From: a virus
Taxonomy: Duplodnaviria > Heunggongvirae > Uroviricota > Caudoviricetes
Reading direction: 5' to 3' (one strand)
Virus record (IMG/VR): IMGVR_UViG_2693429555_000008
Length of the DNA stretch: 8,796 nucleotides
Of the stretch, positions 1,102 through 8,640 are shown in pieces; position 1 is the first letter of the stretch, and each line of letters starts with the position of its first letter. The position numbers and the translations under genes were made by a program. The notes beneath the pieces are model-generated. The model searched no databases, had not been told where the DNA came from, and was given only the letters and a program-made list of their open reading frames with translations.

Positions 1102-1521
1102 TTATGATGCGTTTTGTGCTTTCTTTTTACGGATTTCTTCGTAGATCATATTGTAATACTGTTTTTTCTCTTCAAGAGTTTTTAATAAGTTATCCGCTTC
1201 ACTTTCTGGCAGTTCGTCTAAGAGATCTAAAAAAATACGTTGTCGTGGCGTTAGAACCCTTGTTTCATAATTGGAGGCTGTGTTCGTTGATGATGAAACG
1301 ATACCATCCATCCATCCCCGGGGTAACCCAAAGGACTCTTCTATAATCTCCACCATATCATCAGCGATCCGTTTTTTTCCTTTTTTCCCCTCTGGGTACA
1401 ACATTCTTGATACATAAGAAGGCTCGCGACCGATCTTTCTGGCCACGTTAACCGCTTTACCATCGCATTTCTCATCACGAATTTTGATGAGTTGTTGTCG
1501 TCTAAATTCATATTTGTCCAT
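1102..1521 (-). CDS. Prophage repressor, XRE-type HTH, DicA/RacR-like, no peptidase domain (139 aa from first ATG)
   Basis: Track ORF 1102..1563 begins at a TTG; the first ATG is at 1521..1519 (MDKYEFRRQQLIKIRDEKCDGKAVNVARKIGREPSYVSRMLY...). HTH segment GKAVNVARKIGREPSYVSRM. C-terminal LTPRQRIFLDLLDELPESEADNLL resembles the DicA C-terminus as I recall it. Divergent from a Cro-like gene. No Shine-Dalgarno before the ATG and a TATTAT -10 (1533..1528) 6 nt upstream suggest a leaderless transcript. Confidence 0.75.
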   Translation of the reverse strand: MDKYEFRRQQLIKIRDEKCDGKAVNVARKIGREPSYVSRMLYPEGKKGKKRIADDMVEIIEESFGLPRGWMDGIVSSSTNTASNYETRVLTPRQRIFLDLLDELPESEADNLLKTLEEKKQYYNMIYEEIRKKKAQNAS

Positions 1522-1556
1522 AGGTAAATAATAGATGCGATTACCGCAAGGTAAAC

Positions 1557-1596
1557 AACCCAAGGGTATTGACTTTTGTTTACCTGTGGGTATTCT
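1557..1596 (+). promoter_or_regulatory. OR-like region: rightward promoter (-35 TTGACT 1569..1574, -10 TATTCT 1591..1596) overlapped by two operator half-palindromes (AACCCAAGGGTA 1557..1568; TACCTGTGGGTA 1581..1592)
   Basis: Hexamers with a 16-bp spacer, AAGGAG Shine-Dalgarno at 1611..1616 and ATG at 1622. Both sites match the TACCCATGGGTA palindrome at 10 of 12 positions and are 24 bp apart centre to centre, mirroring the OL-like pair. Confidence 0.45.
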
Positions 1597-2383: not shown

Positions 2384-2542
2384 ATGGCTAACGCCTGGCT
2401 CAGATTATGGCATGACATGCCAAATGACCCTAAGTGGCGAACAATTGCCAGGGTGTCAGGGCAGCCAATTGCAACAGTGATGGCAGTGTATATCCACGCT
2501 CCTGGTGAGCGCGTCACGAAATGTCACGCGAGGTCACATTGA
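2384..2542 (+). CDS. Replication initiator, N-terminal fragment (52 aa ORF ending inside iteron array 1)
   Basis: ATG 2384 with GAGGTG Shine-Dalgarno; MANAWLRLWHDMPNDPKWRTIARVSGQPIATVMAVYIHAPGERVTKCHARSH, stop TGA 2540..2542. The N-terminus resembles prophage replication proteins, and the gene sits where O would be in a lambda-like early-right operon. Confidence 0.5.
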   Translation: MANAWLRLWHDMPNDPKWRTIARVSGQPIATVMAVYIHAPGERVTKCHARSH

Positions 2543-3455
2543 TGTCACGACAGAAGATTTGGCAAGTGCGCTCGACGTGACAGAAGAGGTAATTGATTCA
2601 ATTTTGCAGACGATGCAGGGGCGGGTACTTGATGGTGATTTAATCACTGGATGGGAAAAACGCCAGGTGCTTAAAGAGGACAACGGCAATATTTCGCAAA
2701 CCGCAAAATCTCCGGCAGAGCGCAAGAGGGCGCAGCGTGAGAGGGAAAGAAAGCGGGAACAAAATGGCGATTGTCACGGCGCGTCACGAAATGTCACGCA
2801 CATGTCACGACGAGTCACGACAGATAAAGATACAGATAGAGATACAGATAAAGAAGATCAAAACACTATGGTCCATGGCGTAAAAAACGCCACGAACCAT
2901 GTAGGGGATGTTCAGACCGTCACTCCTGGCCAGCCCGCAGGCACGACACCGGAAGCCGATTCAGCGTATGCGCTGAAAGCCGATTCGGGCGCTGTGCAGC
3001 AGGCGATGACCGCTGGGCCGGAGCAATCACACCAACTGCAGCAGCCTGAAGCCGATTCCGCCATTCAGCGGGAAGCCGATCGGGTAGTCCCGGAAAACAC
3101 CGGGCAGCCTGTGGGACGAGTGGATTATCCGGATGTGTTCGAACAGGTCTGGCGGGAATACCCGTTACGAGCCGGGGCAAACCCGAAGAAATCCGCTTTC
3201 AGTGCCTGGAAGGCCAGATTACGCGAGGGGGTGCCACCAGAGGCCATGCTGGATGGTGTAAGGCGTTACACAAGATACCTGGCTGCTACCGGGAAAACGG
3301 GAACGGAATTTGTTCAGCGAGCGACGACGTTTTTTGGACCGGACCGGAATTTTGAAAACCCCTGGTTGCTCCCGGTAAGCGGCACGAACAACCAGCGTTG
3401 TGTTAATCATATTTCTGAACCGGACACCGAAATTCCGCCGGGATTCAGAGGGTAA
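2505..3455 (+). CDS. Replication initiator, main ORF in the +1 frame (316 codons; GTG at 2505, no Shine-Dalgarno of its own)
   Basis: Long ORF with no ATG or ribosome-binding site; its frame opens at 2481 and overlaps the N-terminal ORF over 2481..2542, so both are most simply one gene interrupted by a +1 frame change. It contains both iteron arrays and a low-complexity basic/acidic linker (KRAQRERERKREQ; TDKDTDRDTDKED). Confidence 0.6.
   Translation: MSASRNVTRGHIDVTTEDLASALDVTEEVIDSILQTMQGRVLDGDLITGWEKRQVLKEDNGNISQTAKSPAERKRAQRERERKREQNGDCHGASRNVTHMSRRVTTDKDTDRDTDKEDQNTMVHGVKNATNHVGDVQTVTPGQPAGTTPEADSAYALKADSGAVQQAMTAGPEQSHQLQQPEADSAIQREADRVVPENTGQPVGRVDYPDVFEQVWREYPLRAGANPKKSAFSAWKARLREGVPPEAMLDGVRRYTRYLAATGKTGTEFVQRATTFFGPDRNFENPWLLPVSGTNNQRCVNHISEPDTEIPPGFRG
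2509..2549. repeat. Iteron array 1: four GTCAC(G/A) motifs starting at 2513, 2523, 2533 and 2544 (10-11 bp phasing)
   Basis: Read directly. The 21-bp block GCGCGTCACGAAATGTCACGC (2509..2529) recurs at 2779..2799. Confidence 0.6.
2771..2855. repeat. Iteron array 2 (putative ori core): five GTCACG motifs at 2773, 2783, 2793, 2804 and 2814, followed by three 12-bp repeats ACAGATA(A/G)AGA(T/A) at 2820..2855
   Basis: Read directly; helical-turn phasing of short direct repeats next to an A-rich repeat block, inside the initiator gene, as for the lambda origin within O. Confidence 0.6.
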
Positions 3456-3492: not shown

Positions 3493-3768
3493 GTGGCAAA
3501 AGTTTTTACTCCCGAACTGCGGGAAGAAGTGAAGGCGCGCATTGTGGAACTGGTACGCAGAGATGGGCGAAAAACGCGTAAACAACTGGAAAATGAAACC
3601 GGGGCGACGAGACACCTGATAGAAGTTCTGGTGAAAGAGCTGGTAGTTAGTGGCGCAGTATATGGTTCAGGACATGGAATATTTCCTTCGGAGCAGGCTC
3701 GTAAGGACTGGGGAAAAGCCCGCAAAAAAAATGTCGAGAGCGGCAGTGAAAAAGAAGAGCGACCCTGA
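3493..3768 (+). CDS. Hypothetical small basic protein with winged-helix-like segment (91 aa)
   Basis: GTG 3493 preceded by a strong AGGAGG Shine-Dalgarno (3483..3488), 37 nt after the initiator stop. RKTRKQLENETGATRHLIEVLVKELVVSG looks HTH-like. An A8 run (3724..3731) lies near the 3' end where an overlapping +1 ORF continues to 3901. Confidence 0.5.
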   Translation: MAKVFTPELREEVKARIVELVRRDGRKTRKQLENETGATRHLIEVLVKELVVSGAVYGSGHGIFPSEQARKDWGKARKKNVESGSEKEERP

Positions 3769-4045
3769 CCTGATTTATTCATTGCTAGATGGCGAAATAC
3801 GCCGTTACAACAGACGACAGAATATAATTTGTCGCGAGTGTCGTCAGAGCGAAGTTATGCAGCGCATACTGGAATTTTATCAGGGAAATGTTCGGTATTA
3901 ATTGAAGTGACGAAATTAAAGAGCATTAGTTCAGATATTAATTGACACTTCGATGGCACAGGCCCAGACCTAGTCTGGTTGTCAGCTTTGAGCTAGGTGA
4001 ACGTTGGTATCGTTAGTTTGTATTAATCAACGGAGAATAGGCCAA

Positions 4046-4076
4046 ATGACTTTTCTTTGCCTCTTTTAATTATAAT
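4046..4076 (+). promoter_or_regulatory. Candidate promoter for the 932-aa gene (-10 TATAAT 4071..4076; weak -35 ATGACT 4046..4051, 19-bp spacer)
   Basis: Good -10 hexamer in a ~240-bp AT-rich intergenic region; the -35 is poor, so placement is tentative. AAGGA Shine-Dalgarno at 4132..4136 before ATG 4145. Confidence 0.25.
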
Positions 4077-4144: not shown

Positions 4145-6943
4145 ATGTGGGGAAGTGAAAACAAACAAAATCTGGACGTACTGGATCCTGTGCAGTTGGT
4201 GCGTATCGAAGCGGTACACCGGGGGTTCCTTTACCAGCATCTTTACGCTGTAGGCTGCTTACTTTTGGCGCAGAGGGCAGCTATGGACTCAGTAACTGTC
4301 GAGCTTGATGAGGATATTGAGCTGAAATCCAAACAGGAACGTCTCTACATTCAGGTTAAAACCCGTTCAAAACCTATTATGCCCAACGATGTGTCGGGGG
4401 CTCTGGAGCGATTTGTAAAGCTCAGAAATGAGCATACTTCGGCAAACCGCGAAGGGGTGGCTTCTTTTGTGATTATTGTAAACCAGGCGCCTGGACCGCT
4501 GCTTCAGAAGATGATTGACGATAAAAAGCTTCCTTCTGATGTTCTTATTGTCTGGCCCCAGTCGACAGCTGGACGTCACCCGGCACTTCCGCCCGCATGG
4601 AGTACTCTGGCTGATGCGGCCACATGGTGTATCGCAGAAGCAGAAAAGCTGAAATTTTCACTATTGTCCCCAGAATCCTTGATTTGGAAGTTAGCAGGAT
4701 TGGTTCAGCTTGCCGCCACCGGAGGCGATACCAATGGACAACATACGTTTTTCACGGAAGAACTTACTGAACTATTTGAACAGTTGATCGTTCAGCTACA
4801 GGACTTTCCTGCACCACCAGCACTGTACCGCCCACAGAACGAAGAACCTTCTCTCACATCTGGTGAGCGGATCCGTATCCTTTGTGGACTCTCAGGTGCA
4901 GGCAAGACAGCTTGGGCCGCACAGGCCGCATTACACTCCACTGCACTTTGTGCTTATTACGACACCGGTGATCTTCCCGGTCCAGCTCTGGCCAGTACGC
5001 TGGTGCGCGAGATGGCTGCTAGATTTACAGCCCGTGACCAAGACGGTTTGCGCAGGATTTTGCTCCCCGGTGCCAGTGGTTTTGAGGCTCTTAGGAGTTT
5101 TGATACCTACCTGAAAGAGCAGGGTACCACCTTGGTGCTGGTTCTGGATAACGCCCATCGTGTACCTGCGGAAAATCTACTGGATGTTCTGAATGCAACT
5201 ACACATATTCGTTTTGTGCTGTTGTGCCAGCCTCACGAAAACGTTCGCGAACTGGAGGTCATGACGGGGCTACAGCGCGAGGGCCTGCAGGGATGGAATC
5301 TCGATACGGTAGCTGTCGTTGTAAACGATATCGGAGGATTTGCCACCGCTATGGGATACGAGCAGCTACGGGCTTACACTGGTGGTCTTCCCCTGTATGT
5401 AGAGAGCGCCGCAAAAATCGCCGTTTCTGATTATGAGCGTAATGTCGATGCTCTGTGTGCTGAACTCCAGCAACAAACCCATACTGCGGAAACCGCCCAA
5501 GAAATTATTCTGTCACGTGTATTTCAGGGATTTGAATCACTACTTCAGAGCGCGCTGGCATTGTTCAGTCTCTCTGACGTAGGGCTGAGTCGCGAAGAGA
5601 TTTCTACGCTCCTAATCAATTCGCTGAACATTTCACCAAGCAGTGCTGCTTCTTTAATTAGGAAAATGCGCGCTACTGGCACTATTGAAATTTATGGAAA
5701 CCAGACCCTGAAGGTACATGATGCTGTCAGGGGGCTAGGACTGCAACATCTGGAACTGATGGATCAGGGTATATCGAACAAAGCGCTACTAGCGCTGAAA
5801 GACCTTTTAGTTGAAAGTCTTCATAATACCCGCAATACAAAACGGTTATCGTTGTTGACTCAACTTTATATTAAGCTCAATGATGTCACGACGTTGATCG
5901 AACTCTCAGGCCAAGAAATGTTTTATGAGATGGGCGTGACGGTCGACATTCTTGCAAGCTTGGAGCGTGCTGCAACATCGGACTTATTGGGACCTGTTCA
6001 TAAATTCTGGGCATTGGATGGCCTTGTTTTCGTTGAGCTTAAAGACGGAATATCCGACCACATTGCTCAGAGGTTAAACATCATGGGAGCTTTACTTGCG
6101 GAGCACAAGTTCGGCTATCAAGAAGAGATGGCCTATGCAATGAAACGAATGTTATTTTCGGCAGAAAGCAATGATGCACGAGAAGTTCAAAAGCTGGCAC
6201 AGGAAGTCCGCCCCCAACTCCCAGATGAAGAACATAAACGCATCTTTGACTACAACCATGCCATTGCACTCTGGAGATTAAAAAAACTCAAGGATGCTGA
6301 AACATTAAGCTGTAATGTTATACAAGGGTACTATTCTTTATTTGGTATCACACCTGCTGATGTCATAGGAAAAAACGCCGACGCATTATGGAAAACTATT
6401 AATCATTCCGAAAATATGCAGGAACACTTTAAACATATGGCTGATGCTCTGGAGTTGCTGGCCAGAATTCGTGATGCGCAGGGAAAACTGTCACCATTAC
6501 TGCGTATTCATTCGATGAAGTTCTACAATCTGGCCATGGCCCCGGAATCCATGGTCAGGGTGGGCCAAGATCTGGCGGATGAGTTTGTTGCCATAAAGGA
6601 TTACGACGGTGCCAAGGAAGTCATGGAGCAACATGTCCTGCCGGTTGTCAATGAGGCAGGTCTAGTACATCGACTGATTCAGGTTCGAAGCCAATACGCA
6701 GTCATATTAGCACTATCGGGTCAGCATAAAGCAGCTGATGTCGAAATGCAGCGCCTTGCTCCCTATATCGAAGGCCTCACAGGTGTACAGCGTCAAGAAA
6801 TCCAAAATCAATCAAATTACATCGTACAGCTTGCCCATAAAGCAGCAAAGACTAAATTAACTGAAGTTTTTGGTGCGGTCGGCCGGAATGAACAATGCCC
6901 CTGTGGCTCGGGAATAAAGTACAAAAAATGTCACGGTGCCTGA
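4145..6943 (+). CDS. STAND/NB-ARC-like P-loop NTPase, 932 aa, with nuclease-like N-terminal domain, helical C-terminal region and terminal SEC-C zinc motif; candidate anti-phage defence protein
   Basis: Uninterrupted 2.8-kb ORF with its own Shine-Dalgarno. Walker A GLSGAGKT (4886..4909); Walker B-like LVLVLDNAH (5132..5158); HIRFVLLCQPHE resembling an NB-ARC RNBS-B/TTR motif; GGLPLYV resembling the GLPL motif (5381..5398); C-terminal CPCGSGIKYKKCHG (6896..6937) matching the SEC-C metal-binding motif. N-terminal GFLYQHLY and D/E-rich strand followed by QVK are compatible with a PD-(D/E)xK fold. GC content looks lower than in the flanking phage genes. Confidence 0.9.
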   Translation: MWGSENKQNLDVLDPVQLVRIEAVHRGFLYQHLYAVGCLLLAQRAAMDSVTVELDEDIELKSKQERLYIQVKTRSKPIMPNDVSGALERFVKLRNEHTSANREGVASFVIIVNQAPGPLLQKMIDDKKLPSDVLIVWPQSTAGRHPALPPAWSTLADAATWCIAEAEKLKFSLLSPESLIWKLAGLVQLAATGGDTNGQHTFFTEELTELFEQLIVQLQDFPAPPALYRPQNEEPSLTSGERIRILCGLSGAGKTAWAAQAALHSTALCAYYDTGDLPGPALASTLVREMAARFTARDQDGLRRILLPGASGFEALRSFDTYLKEQGTTLVLVLDNAHRVPAENLLDVLNATTHIRFVLLCQPHENVRELEVMTGLQREGLQGWNLDTVAVVVNDIGGFATAMGYEQLRAYTGGLPLYVESAAKIAVSDYERNVDALCAELQQQTHTAETAQEIILSRVFQGFESLLQSALALFSLSDVGLSREEISTLLINSLNISPSSAASLIRKMRATGTIEIYGNQTLKVHDAVRGLGLQHLELMDQGISNKALLALKDLLVESLHNTRNTKRLSLLTQLYIKLNDVTTLIELSGQEMFYEMGVTVDILASLERAATSDLLGPVHKFWALDGLVFVELKDGISDHIAQRLNIMGALLAEHKFGYQEEMAYAMKRMLFSAESNDAREVQKLAQEVRPQLPDEEHKRIFDYNHAIALWRLKKLKDAETLSCNVIQGYYSLFGITPADVIGKNADALWKTINHSENMQEHFKHMADALELLARIRDAQGKLSPLLRIHSMKFYNLAMAPESMVRVGQDLADEFVAIKDYDGAKEVMEQHVLPVVNEAGLVHRLIQVRSQYAVILALSGQHKAADVEMQRLAPYIEGLTGVQRQEIQNQSNYIVQLAHKAAKTKLTEVFGAVGRNEQCPCGSGIKYKKCHGA

Positions 6944-7045: not shown

Positions 7046-7098
7046 GGCTGCGGGTGCTTGAGGCTATCTGTCTCAGGCATGAACACCAAAGGCAGATA

Positions 7099-7172
7099 GA
7101 GAAAAGCCCCAGTTAACATTACGCGTCCTGCAAGACGCTTAACATTAATCTGAGGCTCAATCTATGAACGGC
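7099..7172 (-). ncRNA. sok: Candidate Sok-like antisense RNA
   Basis: Minus-strand promoter -35 TTGCCT (rc of 7202..7207) and -10 TAACCT (rc of 7179..7184), 17-bp spacer, start near 7172. The transcript would be complementary to the mok Shine-Dalgarno and start codon (7152..7166), contain hairpin GCGTC-CTGCAA-GACGC (7123..7138) and end in a U-rich tract (rc of 7099..7105). Boundaries are approximate. Confidence 0.35.
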
Positions 7173-7376
7173 AAATCTAGGTTAGCCTCTTACGTGCCGA
7201 AAGGCAAGGAGAAGCAGGCTATGAAGCAGCAAAAGGCGATGTTAATCGTCCTGATCGTCATCTGTTTAACCGTCATAGTGACGGCACTGGTAACGAGGAA
7301 AGACCTCTGCGAGGTACGAATCCGAACCGGCCAGACGGAGGTCGCTGTCTTCACAGCTTACGAACCTGAGGAGTAA
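7164..7376 (+). CDS. mok: Mok-like reading frame (70 aa), an in-frame N-terminal extension of hok
   Basis: ATG 7164 with GAGG Shine-Dalgarno 8 nt upstream; in frame with hok and sharing its stop, as I recall for chromosomal mokC/hokC. Its start region is the predicted Sok target. Confidence 0.5.
   Translation: MNGKSRLASYVPKGKEKQAMKQQKAMLIVLIVICLTVIVTALVTRKDLCEVRIRTGQTEVAVFTAYEPEE
7221..7376 (+). CDS. hok: Hok/Gef-family type I toxin (51 aa membrane peptide), HokD/RelF-like
   Basis: Translation MKQQKAMLIVLIVICLTVIVTALVTRKDLCEVRIRTGQTEVAVFTAYEPEE is nearly identical to the E. coli HokD/RelF sequence as I recall it; hydrophobic transmembrane helix followed by the conserved RKDLCEV...GQTEVAVF core. 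Confidence 0.9.
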   Translation: MKQQKAMLIVLIVICLTVIVTALVTRKDLCEVRIRTGQTEVAVFTAYEPEE

Positions 7377-7471: not shown

Positions 7472-7543
7472 CCTGGCATTCTGGTTTACAATTCGCACGC
7501 CAGCCTGAACAACTGGCACCTGCTGCGCCAGCAGAGACAACCG

Positions 7544-7822
7544 ATGGCGCACGATACCAAATTACACAATTCTAATGATTCTGCTGTCTTTGCCAGCAGG
7601 TGCGGACGGCGTTTTCACGCATTCACATCAGACTGGTTCCAGCATCCTCCATGCACTGAAGAGCAGGCTGAATGGATAATTCAGTGTTACCGCAGGCGTG
7701 GATACGAGGTTAAGAAAGCTCTTAGTCTCGACTATCGTCACTGGATAATCTCAGTCAGACTCCCTTACTCCGAACGCCCACCGCGTCCGTCCCGCACATT
7801 CCAGCAACGCATCTGGAGGTAA
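7544..7822 (+). CDS. Hypothetical 92-aa protein, paralog copy 1 (Cys/His/Arg/Trp-rich; Rem-like position after hok)
   Basis: Track ORF 7415..7822 contains the hok terminator, so the start is placed at ATG 7544 (MAHDTKLHNSND...WFQHPPCTEEQAEWIIQCYRRRGYEV...). Near-identical to the 8145..8423 product over the C-terminal ~65 residues. In the Qin prophage hokD is followed by rem then ydfU; assignment is by synteny only. Confidence 0.55.
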   Translation: MAHDTKLHNSNDSAVFASRCGRRFHAFTSDWFQHPPCTEEQAEWIIQCYRRRGYEVKKALSLDYRHWIISVRLPYSERPPRPSRTFQQRIWR

Positions 7823-8039
7823 CGTGCGGGTATTACTTCGACCTGTTCTGGTACCGGAACTCGGGCTGGTGATCGTTAAGCCGGGCCGTGAATCCATGCC
7901 GGTATTCCACAATACCCGGGTACTGGTGGAGCCGGAACCGAAAAGCATGCGTAATCTGCCGTCCGGGGTCGTTCCTGCCGTTCGCCAGCCGCTGGTGGAA
8001 GACAAAACATTGCTGCCGTTTTTCAGTAACGCACGGGTA
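7616..8039. repeat. Tandem direct repeat, unit A (424 bp, ~95% identical to unit B)
   Basis: Base-by-base comparison with 8217..8640, offset exactly 601 bp, with a handful of substitutions. Confidence 0.85.
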
Positions 8040-8078: not shown

Positions 8079-8144
8079 ACTCATCTACAATCTTGCGCGG
8101 GGCTGAACTCCCGCTGAGTAACACCGTGCCACCGGAGAAAACCG

Positions 8145-8423
8145 ATGGCACGCAACGTAAAATATTACAATTCTGATAATTCGCCCGTTCTTGCCTGCAC
8201 GCACGAGCGGTATTCTCACGCATTCAAGTCTGAATGGTTCCAGCACCCTCCATGCACTGAAGAGCAGGCGGAATGGATAATTCAGTGTTACCGCAGGCGC
8301 GGATACGAGGTTAAGAAAGCTCTTAGTCTCGACTACCGTCACTGGATAATCTCAGTCAGATTGCCTAACTCCGAACGCCCACCGCGTCCGTCCCGTACAT
8401 TCCAGCAACGCATCTGGAGGTAA
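8145..8423 (+). CDS. Hypothetical 92-aa protein, paralog copy 2
   Basis: ATG 8145 with GGAGA Shine-Dalgarno (8134..8138); MARNVKYYNSDNSPVLACTHERYSHAFKSEWFQHPPCTEEQ.... The N-terminal ~25 residues differ from copy 1; the rest is near-identical. Confidence 0.6.
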   Translation: MARNVKYYNSDNSPVLACTHERYSHAFKSEWFQHPPCTEEQAEWIIQCYRRRGYEVKKALSLDYRHWIISVRLPNSERPPRPSRTFQQRIWR

Positions 8424-8640
8424 CGTGCGGGTATTACTTCGACCTGTTCTGGTACCGGAACTCGGGATGGTGGTCGTTAAGCCGGGCCGTGAATCCATGC
8501 CGGTATTCCACAATACCCGGGTACTGGTGGAGCCGGAACCGAAAAGCATGCGTAATCTGCCGTCCGGGGTCGTTCCTGCCGTTCGCCAGCCGCTGGTGGA
8601 AGACAAAACATTGCTGCCGTTTTTCAGTAACGCACGGGTA
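8217..8640. repeat. Tandem direct repeat, unit B
   Basis: See unit A. Confidence 0.85.

Follow-up and report, generated by a model that had tools for sequence, protein, structure and literature searches.

The locus and the 932-residue protein

The DNA analysed here is a stretch of 8,796 nucleotides (the window) from the IMG/VR virus record IMGVR_UViG_2693429555_000008 (Caudoviricetes). Our subject is the protein of 932 amino acids encoded by a single long open reading frame (ORF) of the window's ORF listing, which is deposited as WP_000264572.1 under the label 'SEC-C metal-binding domain-containing protein' and which we read as a probable antiviral receptor of the Avs type with an N-terminal nuclease effector. 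The ATG start codon is preceded at a distance of 9 nt by an AAGGA ribosome-binding site and coincides with the starts of the homologs. A scan for promoters and terminators around the gene gave nothing exceeding the shuffled expectation; a perfect TATAAT is present upstream at 4071-4076, noted by eye only. The protein comprises a nuclease domain, a proline-rich linker, a STAND NTPase, a TPR-like solenoid and a short SEC-C tail (Table 1), and its full-length AlphaFold2 (AF2) model, calculated with 108 sequences, reached a predicted local distance difference test score (pLDDT) of 91.6 and a predicted TM-score (pTM) of 0.77.

Of 5426 complete E. coli genomes, 16 contain the gene with 99.4-100% identity, on the chromosome in every case. 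In NZ_CP148579.1, the only such locus for which the annotation was read, it is part of a lambdoid (Rac/Qin-like) prophage at tRNA-Ser/mtfA, in the order replication genes, frameshifted DUF977 gene, 932-residue protein gene, hokD, DUF968, RusA and Q. One E. coli carries a copy broken by ISEc52 of the IS3 family (NZ_OZ546984.1, 361511-365562), the N-terminal fragment of which has been named 'dsDNA nuclease domain-containing protein' by PGAP.

Table 1. Positions of the gene, its domains and motifs, and the adjoining toxin-antitoxin locus within the window.
Feature	Position	Strand	Remarks
Whole gene, WP_000264572.1	4145..6943	+	932 aa; Cap4 nuclease / STAND NTPase / TPR-like presumed sensor / SEC-C
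Cap4-like PD-(D/E)xK nuclease domain	4145..4822	+	residues 1-226
H25-R-G27-F28-L-Y30-Q31-H32 motif, first core helix	4217..4240	+	G27, Q31, H32 invariant
Acidic cluster E53-L-D55-E56-D57-I-E59, beta1/beta2 turn	4301..4321	+	D55, D57 invariant
Q70-V71-K72 on beta3, predicted (D/E/Q)xK element	4352..4360	+	Q70, K72 invariant
Conserved proline-rich linker (…PPALYRPQNEEPSL…)	4823..4870	+	residues 227-242; Y228, E234, P235 conserved
STAND NTPase (nucleotide-binding domain, helical domain, winged helix)	4871..5764	+	residues 243-540; Pfam AAA_22, AAA_16
Walker A, G248-LSGAGK254-T255	4886..4909	+	G251, G253, K254 invariant (108 homologs)
Walker B, L331-VLVLD335-N336	5135..5152	+	D335 invariant; N336 in at least 90%
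GxP motif of the STAND helical domain, G413-G-L-P416-L-Y-V	5381..5401	+	P416 invariant; by inspection
MHD-like His motif at the winged-helix end, K523-V-H525-D526-A-V-R529	5711..5731	+	H525, D526 in at least 90%; by inspection
TPR-like alpha-solenoid	5765..6871	+	residues 541-909; all-helical hairpins in AF2
SEC-C zinc-knuckle tail, VGRNEQCPCGSGIKYKKCHGA	6878..6940	+	residues 912-932; Pfam PF02810, E 8e-10
sok RNA	7052-7226		Rfam RF01794; 110 bits
hokD	7164-7376		ORF; annotated hokD 7221-7376

The N-terminal domain belongs to the Cap4 nuclease family

The original prediction for this DNA had placed a PD-(D/E)xK-like nuclease domain of Mrr-like or Cap4-like type at 4145-4600 (residues 1-152), with D55/D57, E59/K61 and Q70/K72 as candidate catalytic residues. 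The strings that it quoted and its numbering of D55, D57, E59, K61, Q70 and K72 agree with the ORF translation, in which residues 20-77 read RIEAVHRGFLYQHLYAVGCLLLAQRAAMDSVTVELDEDIELKSKQERLYIQVKTRSKP and the hydrophobic strand FVIIVN is located at residues 108-113. The Pfam profile Cap4_nuclease (PF14130) matched residues 25-77 when the whole protein was searched (E 5.9e-6, 27.1 bits) and gave E 1.5e-6 and 29.0 bits with the isolated N-terminal domain, both above the gathering score of 26.2 bits; the same profile was matched by all 18 homologous N-terminal domains tested, with a best E value of 1.4e-8. PADLOC models returned LmuA (E 5e-7, residues 26-119) together with DUF4297 and HamA, and NCBIfam returned DUF4297_antiphage. 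The Cap4-like assignment thus stands, and the Mrr-like one was rejected: similarity to Mrr_cat-type domains, the effector kind of Avs4, was found with none of Pfam, PADLOC and NCBIfam.

The predicted structure agrees with this assignment. An AF2 model of residues 1-226 calculated with 18 homologs (pLDDT 81.7, pTM 0.82) exhibits a helix at 29-42, strands at 49-52, 58-61 and 65-72, a helix at 80-98 and a strand at 105-112. For the domain as a whole the first two strands are placed at 49-54 and 57-61, and beyond the last strand a helical half continues to around residue 220. The resulting alpha-beta-beta-beta-alpha-beta restriction-endonuclease core is present in both the domain model and the full-length model, and Foldseek aligned the domain model to Cap4-family structures with E values of 1e-6 to 3e-3 and TM-scores of around 0.5-0.56. 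The span originally given covers the catalytic core, with the domain as a whole extending to about residue 226. Sequence-only searches of the PDB, using the protein and its profiles, recovered SecA peptides, PH0952 and weak HamA/LmuA matches, the nuclease matches lying at E ~1: on their own, such searches cannot place the nuclease. Four independent lines, namely profiles, fold, structure comparison and conservation (see below), identify the N-terminal domain as a Cap4-family PD-(D/E)xK nuclease domain.

Candidate active-site residues

Conservation was analysed over three sets: 25 homologs with at least 49% identity, 150 representatives of 50%-identity clusters and 108 full-length homologs with 28-81% identity. 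Residues E53, D55, D57, E59, Q70, V71 and K72 are all invariant in the first set, and among the cluster representatives the counts remain high for D57 (148/148), Q70 and K72 (each 149/150), D55 and E53 (each 145/148), E59 (141/149) and Q31 (146/146). Only 14 columns are invariant across the 108 full-length homologs, seven of which fall within the nuclease core (G27, Q31, H32, D55, D57, Q70 and K72), the others being K182, G251, G253 and K254 of the P-loop, Y271, D335 of Walker B and P416. D55, D57, Q70 and K72 are therefore as well conserved as the Walker A lysine K254 and the Walker B aspartate D335, and this holds down to 28% identity: the pattern is far beyond chance. Of the residue pairs originally put forward, D55/D57 and Q70/K72 are borne out by these alignments, and E59/K61 is not: K61 is replaced by V, L, A, I or R among the 150 representatives, and the reading of 'ELK' as an E59-x-K61 element was dropped.

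The topology points to D57, at the beginning of beta2, as the likely 'PD' aspartate; Q70-V-K72 would correspond to the (D/E)xK element with a glutamine in the acidic position, and E53, D55 and E59 would provide extra acidic residues around the predicted metal site. A weak alignment to HamA (8zue_A, E 1.3) displays the shared pattern GF(L)(Y/F)Q ... E..DDI(D/E) ... QVK, in which the 'VQVK' of HamA aligns with Q70-V-K72. For the DUF4297-HerA nuclease, a triad D41/E59/K61 has been reported that is said to resemble that of Cap4 (bioRxiv 10.1101/2024.10.24.620088). Two further conserved positions, K182 (window 4676-4690) as one of the 14 invariant columns and H200 (4742-4744), conserved in at least 90% of homologs, fall into the second, helical half of the domain, beyond the core matched by Pfam, where they may contribute to DNA contact or to an interface.

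STAND NTPase and TPR-like solenoid

The linker that follows the nuclease domain is devoid of regular secondary structure in the full-length AF2 model. For the region beyond it, hmmsearch with the family profile matched the STAND-TPR protein PH0952 (6mfv_A) with E 3.3e-5 over residues 234-541 and MalT weakly, whilst Foldseek with the full model retrieved 6mfv_A with E 2.3e-13 as well as the wheat and tomato NLR resistosomes, ORC/Cdc6 and Avs4. We take GGLPLYV (413-419) to be the GxP motif, in line with what is established for NB-ARC/STAND proteins. The Walker B motif ends in D-N, which suggests that what matters in this NTPase is the binding of the nucleotide and not its rapid hydrolysis; other seeds of a recent STAND census, for example 4, 7 and 32, also exhibit D-N (Lee et al. 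2026, PMC13581612). Foldseek matches of the solenoid (541-909) were TPR subunits of the anaphase-promoting complex (APC/C) and LGN, and this solenoid is the presumed sensor. The protein thus combines several features of STAND/Avs receptors, with Walker A and B motifs, a GxP motif, a winged-helix histidine, an N-terminal effector and a presumed C-terminal sensor, and its loci in defence islands or on mobile elements add to these (see below).

The SEC-C tail

The C-terminal tail (VGRNEQCPCGSGIKYKKCHG) is almost identical to the zinc-binding peptide of SecA (1sx0, E 3e-5; also 1ozb), and it is the only unusual feature of the protein. It is present in 78 of the 108 diverse homologs; since the remaining ~28% lack it and end just past the last helix, the tail is accessory, unlike the nuclease and the P-loop. 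In tail-less homologs such as P0157, P0204 and P0253, a basic tail or an additional C-terminal domain is present instead. In SecA, SEC-C binds SecB and ribosomes during protein export (bioRxiv 10.1101/613315), and the domain has also been described at the N terminus of the lactococcal Rugutis protein (PMC11381338). A SEC-C knuckle furthermore ends the PADLOC models for CBASS E2 and E1-E2 and for PDC-S12.

Although we regard it as improbable, the tail might draw SecB or the ribosome to the receptor, such that the sensor would sample nascent phage proteins or the host factor would serve as cofactor or guard, comparable to the use of EF-Tu by SeAvs7. That loss of the tail follows taxa devoid of SecB was considered and rejected: the three named tail-less members come from Pseudomonas fluorescens, Pseudoalteromonas and Streptomyces, and with these three no simple taxonomic argument backs recruitment of a host factor. 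If recruitment did occur, it would represent a second and mechanistically different case of a bacterial pattern-recognition receptor repurposing a host factor, and it might explain the recurring SEC-C ends on other defence proteins.

Distribution and genomic neighbours

A full-length search returned 933 matches, of which the best 120 are mostly 880-960 aa long and stem from Enterobacterales, Vibrio, Shewanella, Aeromonas, Alteromonas, Pseudomonas, Variovorax and Methylophilaceae; one family member from Streptomyces was also found. Several of the Vibrio, Alteromonas and Pseudomonas homologs are named 'dsDNA nuclease domain-containing protein'. The profile of the N-terminal domain identified ~410 clusters (50% identity) among 1.8 billion representatives, and among the matches listed almost all non-fragments are proteins of ~880-980 aa, which indicates that this version of Cap4 is essentially specific to the architecture described here. 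Phage records contain a homolog in only 2 of 50,697 cases, both metagenomic and with 34-39% identity. Three Shewanella xiamenensis homologs of 764 aa (P0082, P0081 and P0085) begin at the equivalent of residue 169 and so are missing the nuclease core; they may be decayed copies or proteins with miscalled starts.

Five genomic contexts were available, a small sample. The Vibrio cholerae homolog is accompanied by a PIN gene, AbiH and a Gabija-like OLD-TOPRIM and UvrD pair, the homolog from Yersinia enterocolitica adjoins a pair of the latter kind, the Pseudomonas homolog, on a mobile element with metal resistance, is immediately followed by AbiH, and the Variovorax homolog lies near Druantia-like genes (DruA and a DruE-like helicase) and a gene of the HNH type. 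As the neighbours vary from locus to locus, a single-gene system is indicated. The AbiH-family gene is located 60 nt 3' of the Pseudomonas homolog on four independent contigs (L003, 10860-11762; L004, 8882-9784; L005, 7307-8014; L006, 10860-11762) and another AbiH gene at 2465-3424 of the Vibrio cholerae island (L002), which may reflect a functional pairing or mere clustering within defence islands.

Other features of the window

Directly downstream of the gene lies a hok/sok type I toxin-antitoxin locus (7052-7376), which is followed by a tandem duplication (7527-7826 and 8128-8427) with a spacing of 601 bp and 86% identity between the copies. The duplicated unit consists of a small hypothetical ORF (…FQHPPCTEEQAEWIIQCYRRRGYEVKK…) together with the 5'-terminal part of DUF968. 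The prophage of NZ_CP148579.1 holds a single copy of it, to which the second copy of the window is only 93% identical, and the duplication suggests recombination between two related prophage modules. Upstream, the DUF977 gene (3493-3901) is split into the overlapping ORFs 3493-3768 and 3650-3901; in NZ_CP148579.1 it is annotated as frameshifted. The immunity region of the prophage (1102-2312) comprises a cI-like repressor ORF (1102-1563, minus strand) that faces YdaS-like (1622-1903) and YdaT-like (1887-2312) genes; in NZ_CP148579.1, dicB, ydfC and ydfB are found further upstream.

Proposed function and alternative explanations

Taken together, the ORF, the fold, the conservation of individual residues, the domain architecture and the defence-island context shown here lead us to propose, with a probability of roughly 75%, that the protein acts alone as an antiviral STAND receptor of Avs type with a Cap4 endonuclease effector, its gene being a moron within the early region of a lambdoid prophage that resembles Rac and Qin. 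By analogy with SeAvs3 and SeAvs7, we infer that catalysis, ATP gating, oligomerisation, a trigger and an antiviral phenotype would belong to it. SeAvs7 is autoinhibited in its apo form and assembles with the phage major capsid protein and ATP into a tetramer scaffolded by Cap4; only the assembled complex degrades dsDNA, and deletion or mutation of Cap4 abolishes toxicity and defence (PMC13581612). DUF4297-HerA cuts dsDNA specifically, for which both its PD-(D/E)xK residues and a dimerised nuclease domain are required (PMC11291478). The same scheme is proposed here because the architecture matches that of Avs receptors: in the resting, ADP-bound monomer the nuclease would be kept inactive until the TPR-like sensor engages some product of a superinfecting phage and the NTPase opens; ATP binding would then lead to oligomerisation, which would bring the Cap4 domains together as an active dsDNA nuclease. 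In the active site, Mg2+ would be bound by D57 together with D55, E53 and E59, with Q70-x-K72 supplying the remaining part, and degradation of phage and host DNA would abort the infection.

Several observations weigh against this proposal. The PF14130 match spans only profile positions 7-68 of 200, the TM-scores to Cap4-family structures are only moderate (0.5-0.56), and the (D/E)xK element has a glutamine where D/E is usual, which could in principle lower or alter activity. With D-N in place of D-D/E in Walker B, hydrolysis may be slow or absent, and the role of the SEC-C tail is left unexplained by the Avs model. Searches at E values up to 1 detected neither a sequence relationship to Avs3 or Avs4 as solved in the PDB nor a match to the AVAST models of PADLOC (Avs1-Avs5, types I-V, PADLOC 2.0) or to any other full-length defence model; PADLOC, NCBIfam and PHROGs likewise gave no full-length family for the protein. 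In the literature searched, beyond Brenes & Laub 2025 and Tables S4-S6 of Lee et al., no name, phenotype, trigger or experiment was found for the family, and its accessions are mentioned nowhere apart from the census entry described below.

The alternative that survives best, although we consider it unlikely, retains an active nuclease and assigns to the STAND and TPR-like parts a cue other than a phage protein (DNA ends, a nucleotide, host stress or loss of a host factor bound by SEC-C) or an ATP-dependent, restriction-like enzyme function. Avs22-24 and bNACHT20 defend without an identifiable phage-encoded activator (Lee et al.), no trigger is known for the present family, the tail belongs to a module known to bind SecB and ribosomes (bioRxiv 10.1101/613315), and an alpha-solenoid of ~370 aa is small compared with the SeAvs7 sensor that reaches beyond residue 1361. 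Set against this is that in every Avs family with a known trigger the TPR-like sensor directly binds a phage protein, and that besides the nuclease neither a DNA-binding nor a nucleotide-sensing domain was detected by Pfam, PADLOC or NCBIfam.

It is very unlikely that the N-terminal domain has lost catalysis and, as a Cap4-like fold, serves only for oligomerisation or DNA binding, with the effector activity residing elsewhere. Dead enzyme domains lose their active-site residues, whereas D55, D57, Q70 and K72 are conserved like the P-loop across 108-150 diverse sequences. The replacement of the acidic residue by glutamine, which could be cited for such a loss together with the match to only ~60 of the 200 Pfam profile positions, recurs in HamA (8zue_A), where the weak alignment (E 1.3) displays the same E..DDI(D/E)...QVK pattern, and no other effector-like domain was detected by Pfam, by PADLOC or in the AF2 model. 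We can give hardly any credence to a role of the gene in prophage biology, be it replication, recombination or control of lysogeny: its place, with the replication-region genes on one side and the hok/DUF968/RusA/Q module on the other, would fit such a role, but homologs are found with no prophage genes around them, within defence islands of the chromosome and on other kinds of mobile element, the gene is as rare among E. coli genomes (16/5426) and phage records (2/50,697) as described above, and one strain carries it naturally disrupted by ISEc52. Finally, a chance match of D...QxK in an unrelated fold is negligible as an explanation: short acidic/lysine patterns are common and the sequence-only PDB searches reach only E ~1, but the invariance of the residues in 108 homologs and the PF14130 matches in 18/18 N-terminal domains refute it.

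The Avs-type receptor proposed here follows a design that is already catalogued: Pfam and NCBI flag homologs as Cap4 or dsDNA nuclease, and a near-identical sequence is a census seed. The NTPase (residues 227-435) of the Escherichia protein WP_021564393.1 is seed 193 among the defence-related STANDs of Table S1 (Lee et al., Nature 2026, PMC13581612) and differs from the 932-residue protein at 2 of 209 positions; the seeds of this census include BLAST finds obtained with Cap4, Mrr, Trypco2 and MBL effectors (PMC13581612). The protein is apparently a new and uncharacterised member of the well-known Avs-like kind, and the nuclease assignment in itself adds little. If the model is right, the protein would be a compact Avs-type receptor borne by a prophage, of a size convenient for structural work, and its trigger would be one more phage protein or cue for the NLR-like receptors of bacteria. 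The SEC-C tail is the only feature able to teach something new.

Comparison with known systems

The founder of PF14130 is the CBASS effector Cap4 (AbCap4, 6VM6/6WAN; EcCap4, 7YIB), in which a C-terminal SAVED domain binds cyclic oligonucleotides, whereas in the present protein the STAND NTPase would regulate the nuclease. Identity as a CBASS Cap4 effector was rejected, as neither a SAVED domain nor a CD-NTase was found in the protein or in the window. LmuA of Lamassu (9UX8, 9NXX, 9HQX) works with the SMC-like LmuB, and HamA of Hachiman (8ZUE) with the helicase HamB; identity with LmuA or HamA was set aside in the same manner, since no gene for LmuB or HamB is present in the window or beside the homologs. 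The closest solved relative of the NTPase and TPR part is PH0952 from Pyrococcus horikoshii (6MFV), which is not a known defence protein and exhibits neither a nuclease effector nor a SEC-C tail. The tail itself belongs with the C-terminal metal-binding domain (SEC-C, PF02810) of SecA, YecA and YchJ, with its likeness to the SecA peptide.

Among the Avs proteins with a Cap4 nuclease, SeAvs3 (PDB 8DGC), which senses the large terminase, comprises 2028 aa and has a different sensor. In case of SeAvs7 the likeness is greater: it too is a single-gene system, in which Cap4 (residues 2-225, compared with 1-226 here) precedes a STAND NTPase and a TPR-like sensor, the Walker A lysine of SeAvs7 being K292 rather than K254. 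Residues of the SeAvs7 sensor are cited up to N1361, compared with a total of 932 aa here, and SeAvs7 uses EF-Tu as structural cofactor, with no SEC-C tail mentioned in its description. Length argues against membership in Avs7, a separation that is drawn from the published description of SeAvs7. By analogy with these receptors, the 932-residue protein would work like an Avs in its design, as a member of this kind outside the Avs1-5 types modelled in PADLOC.

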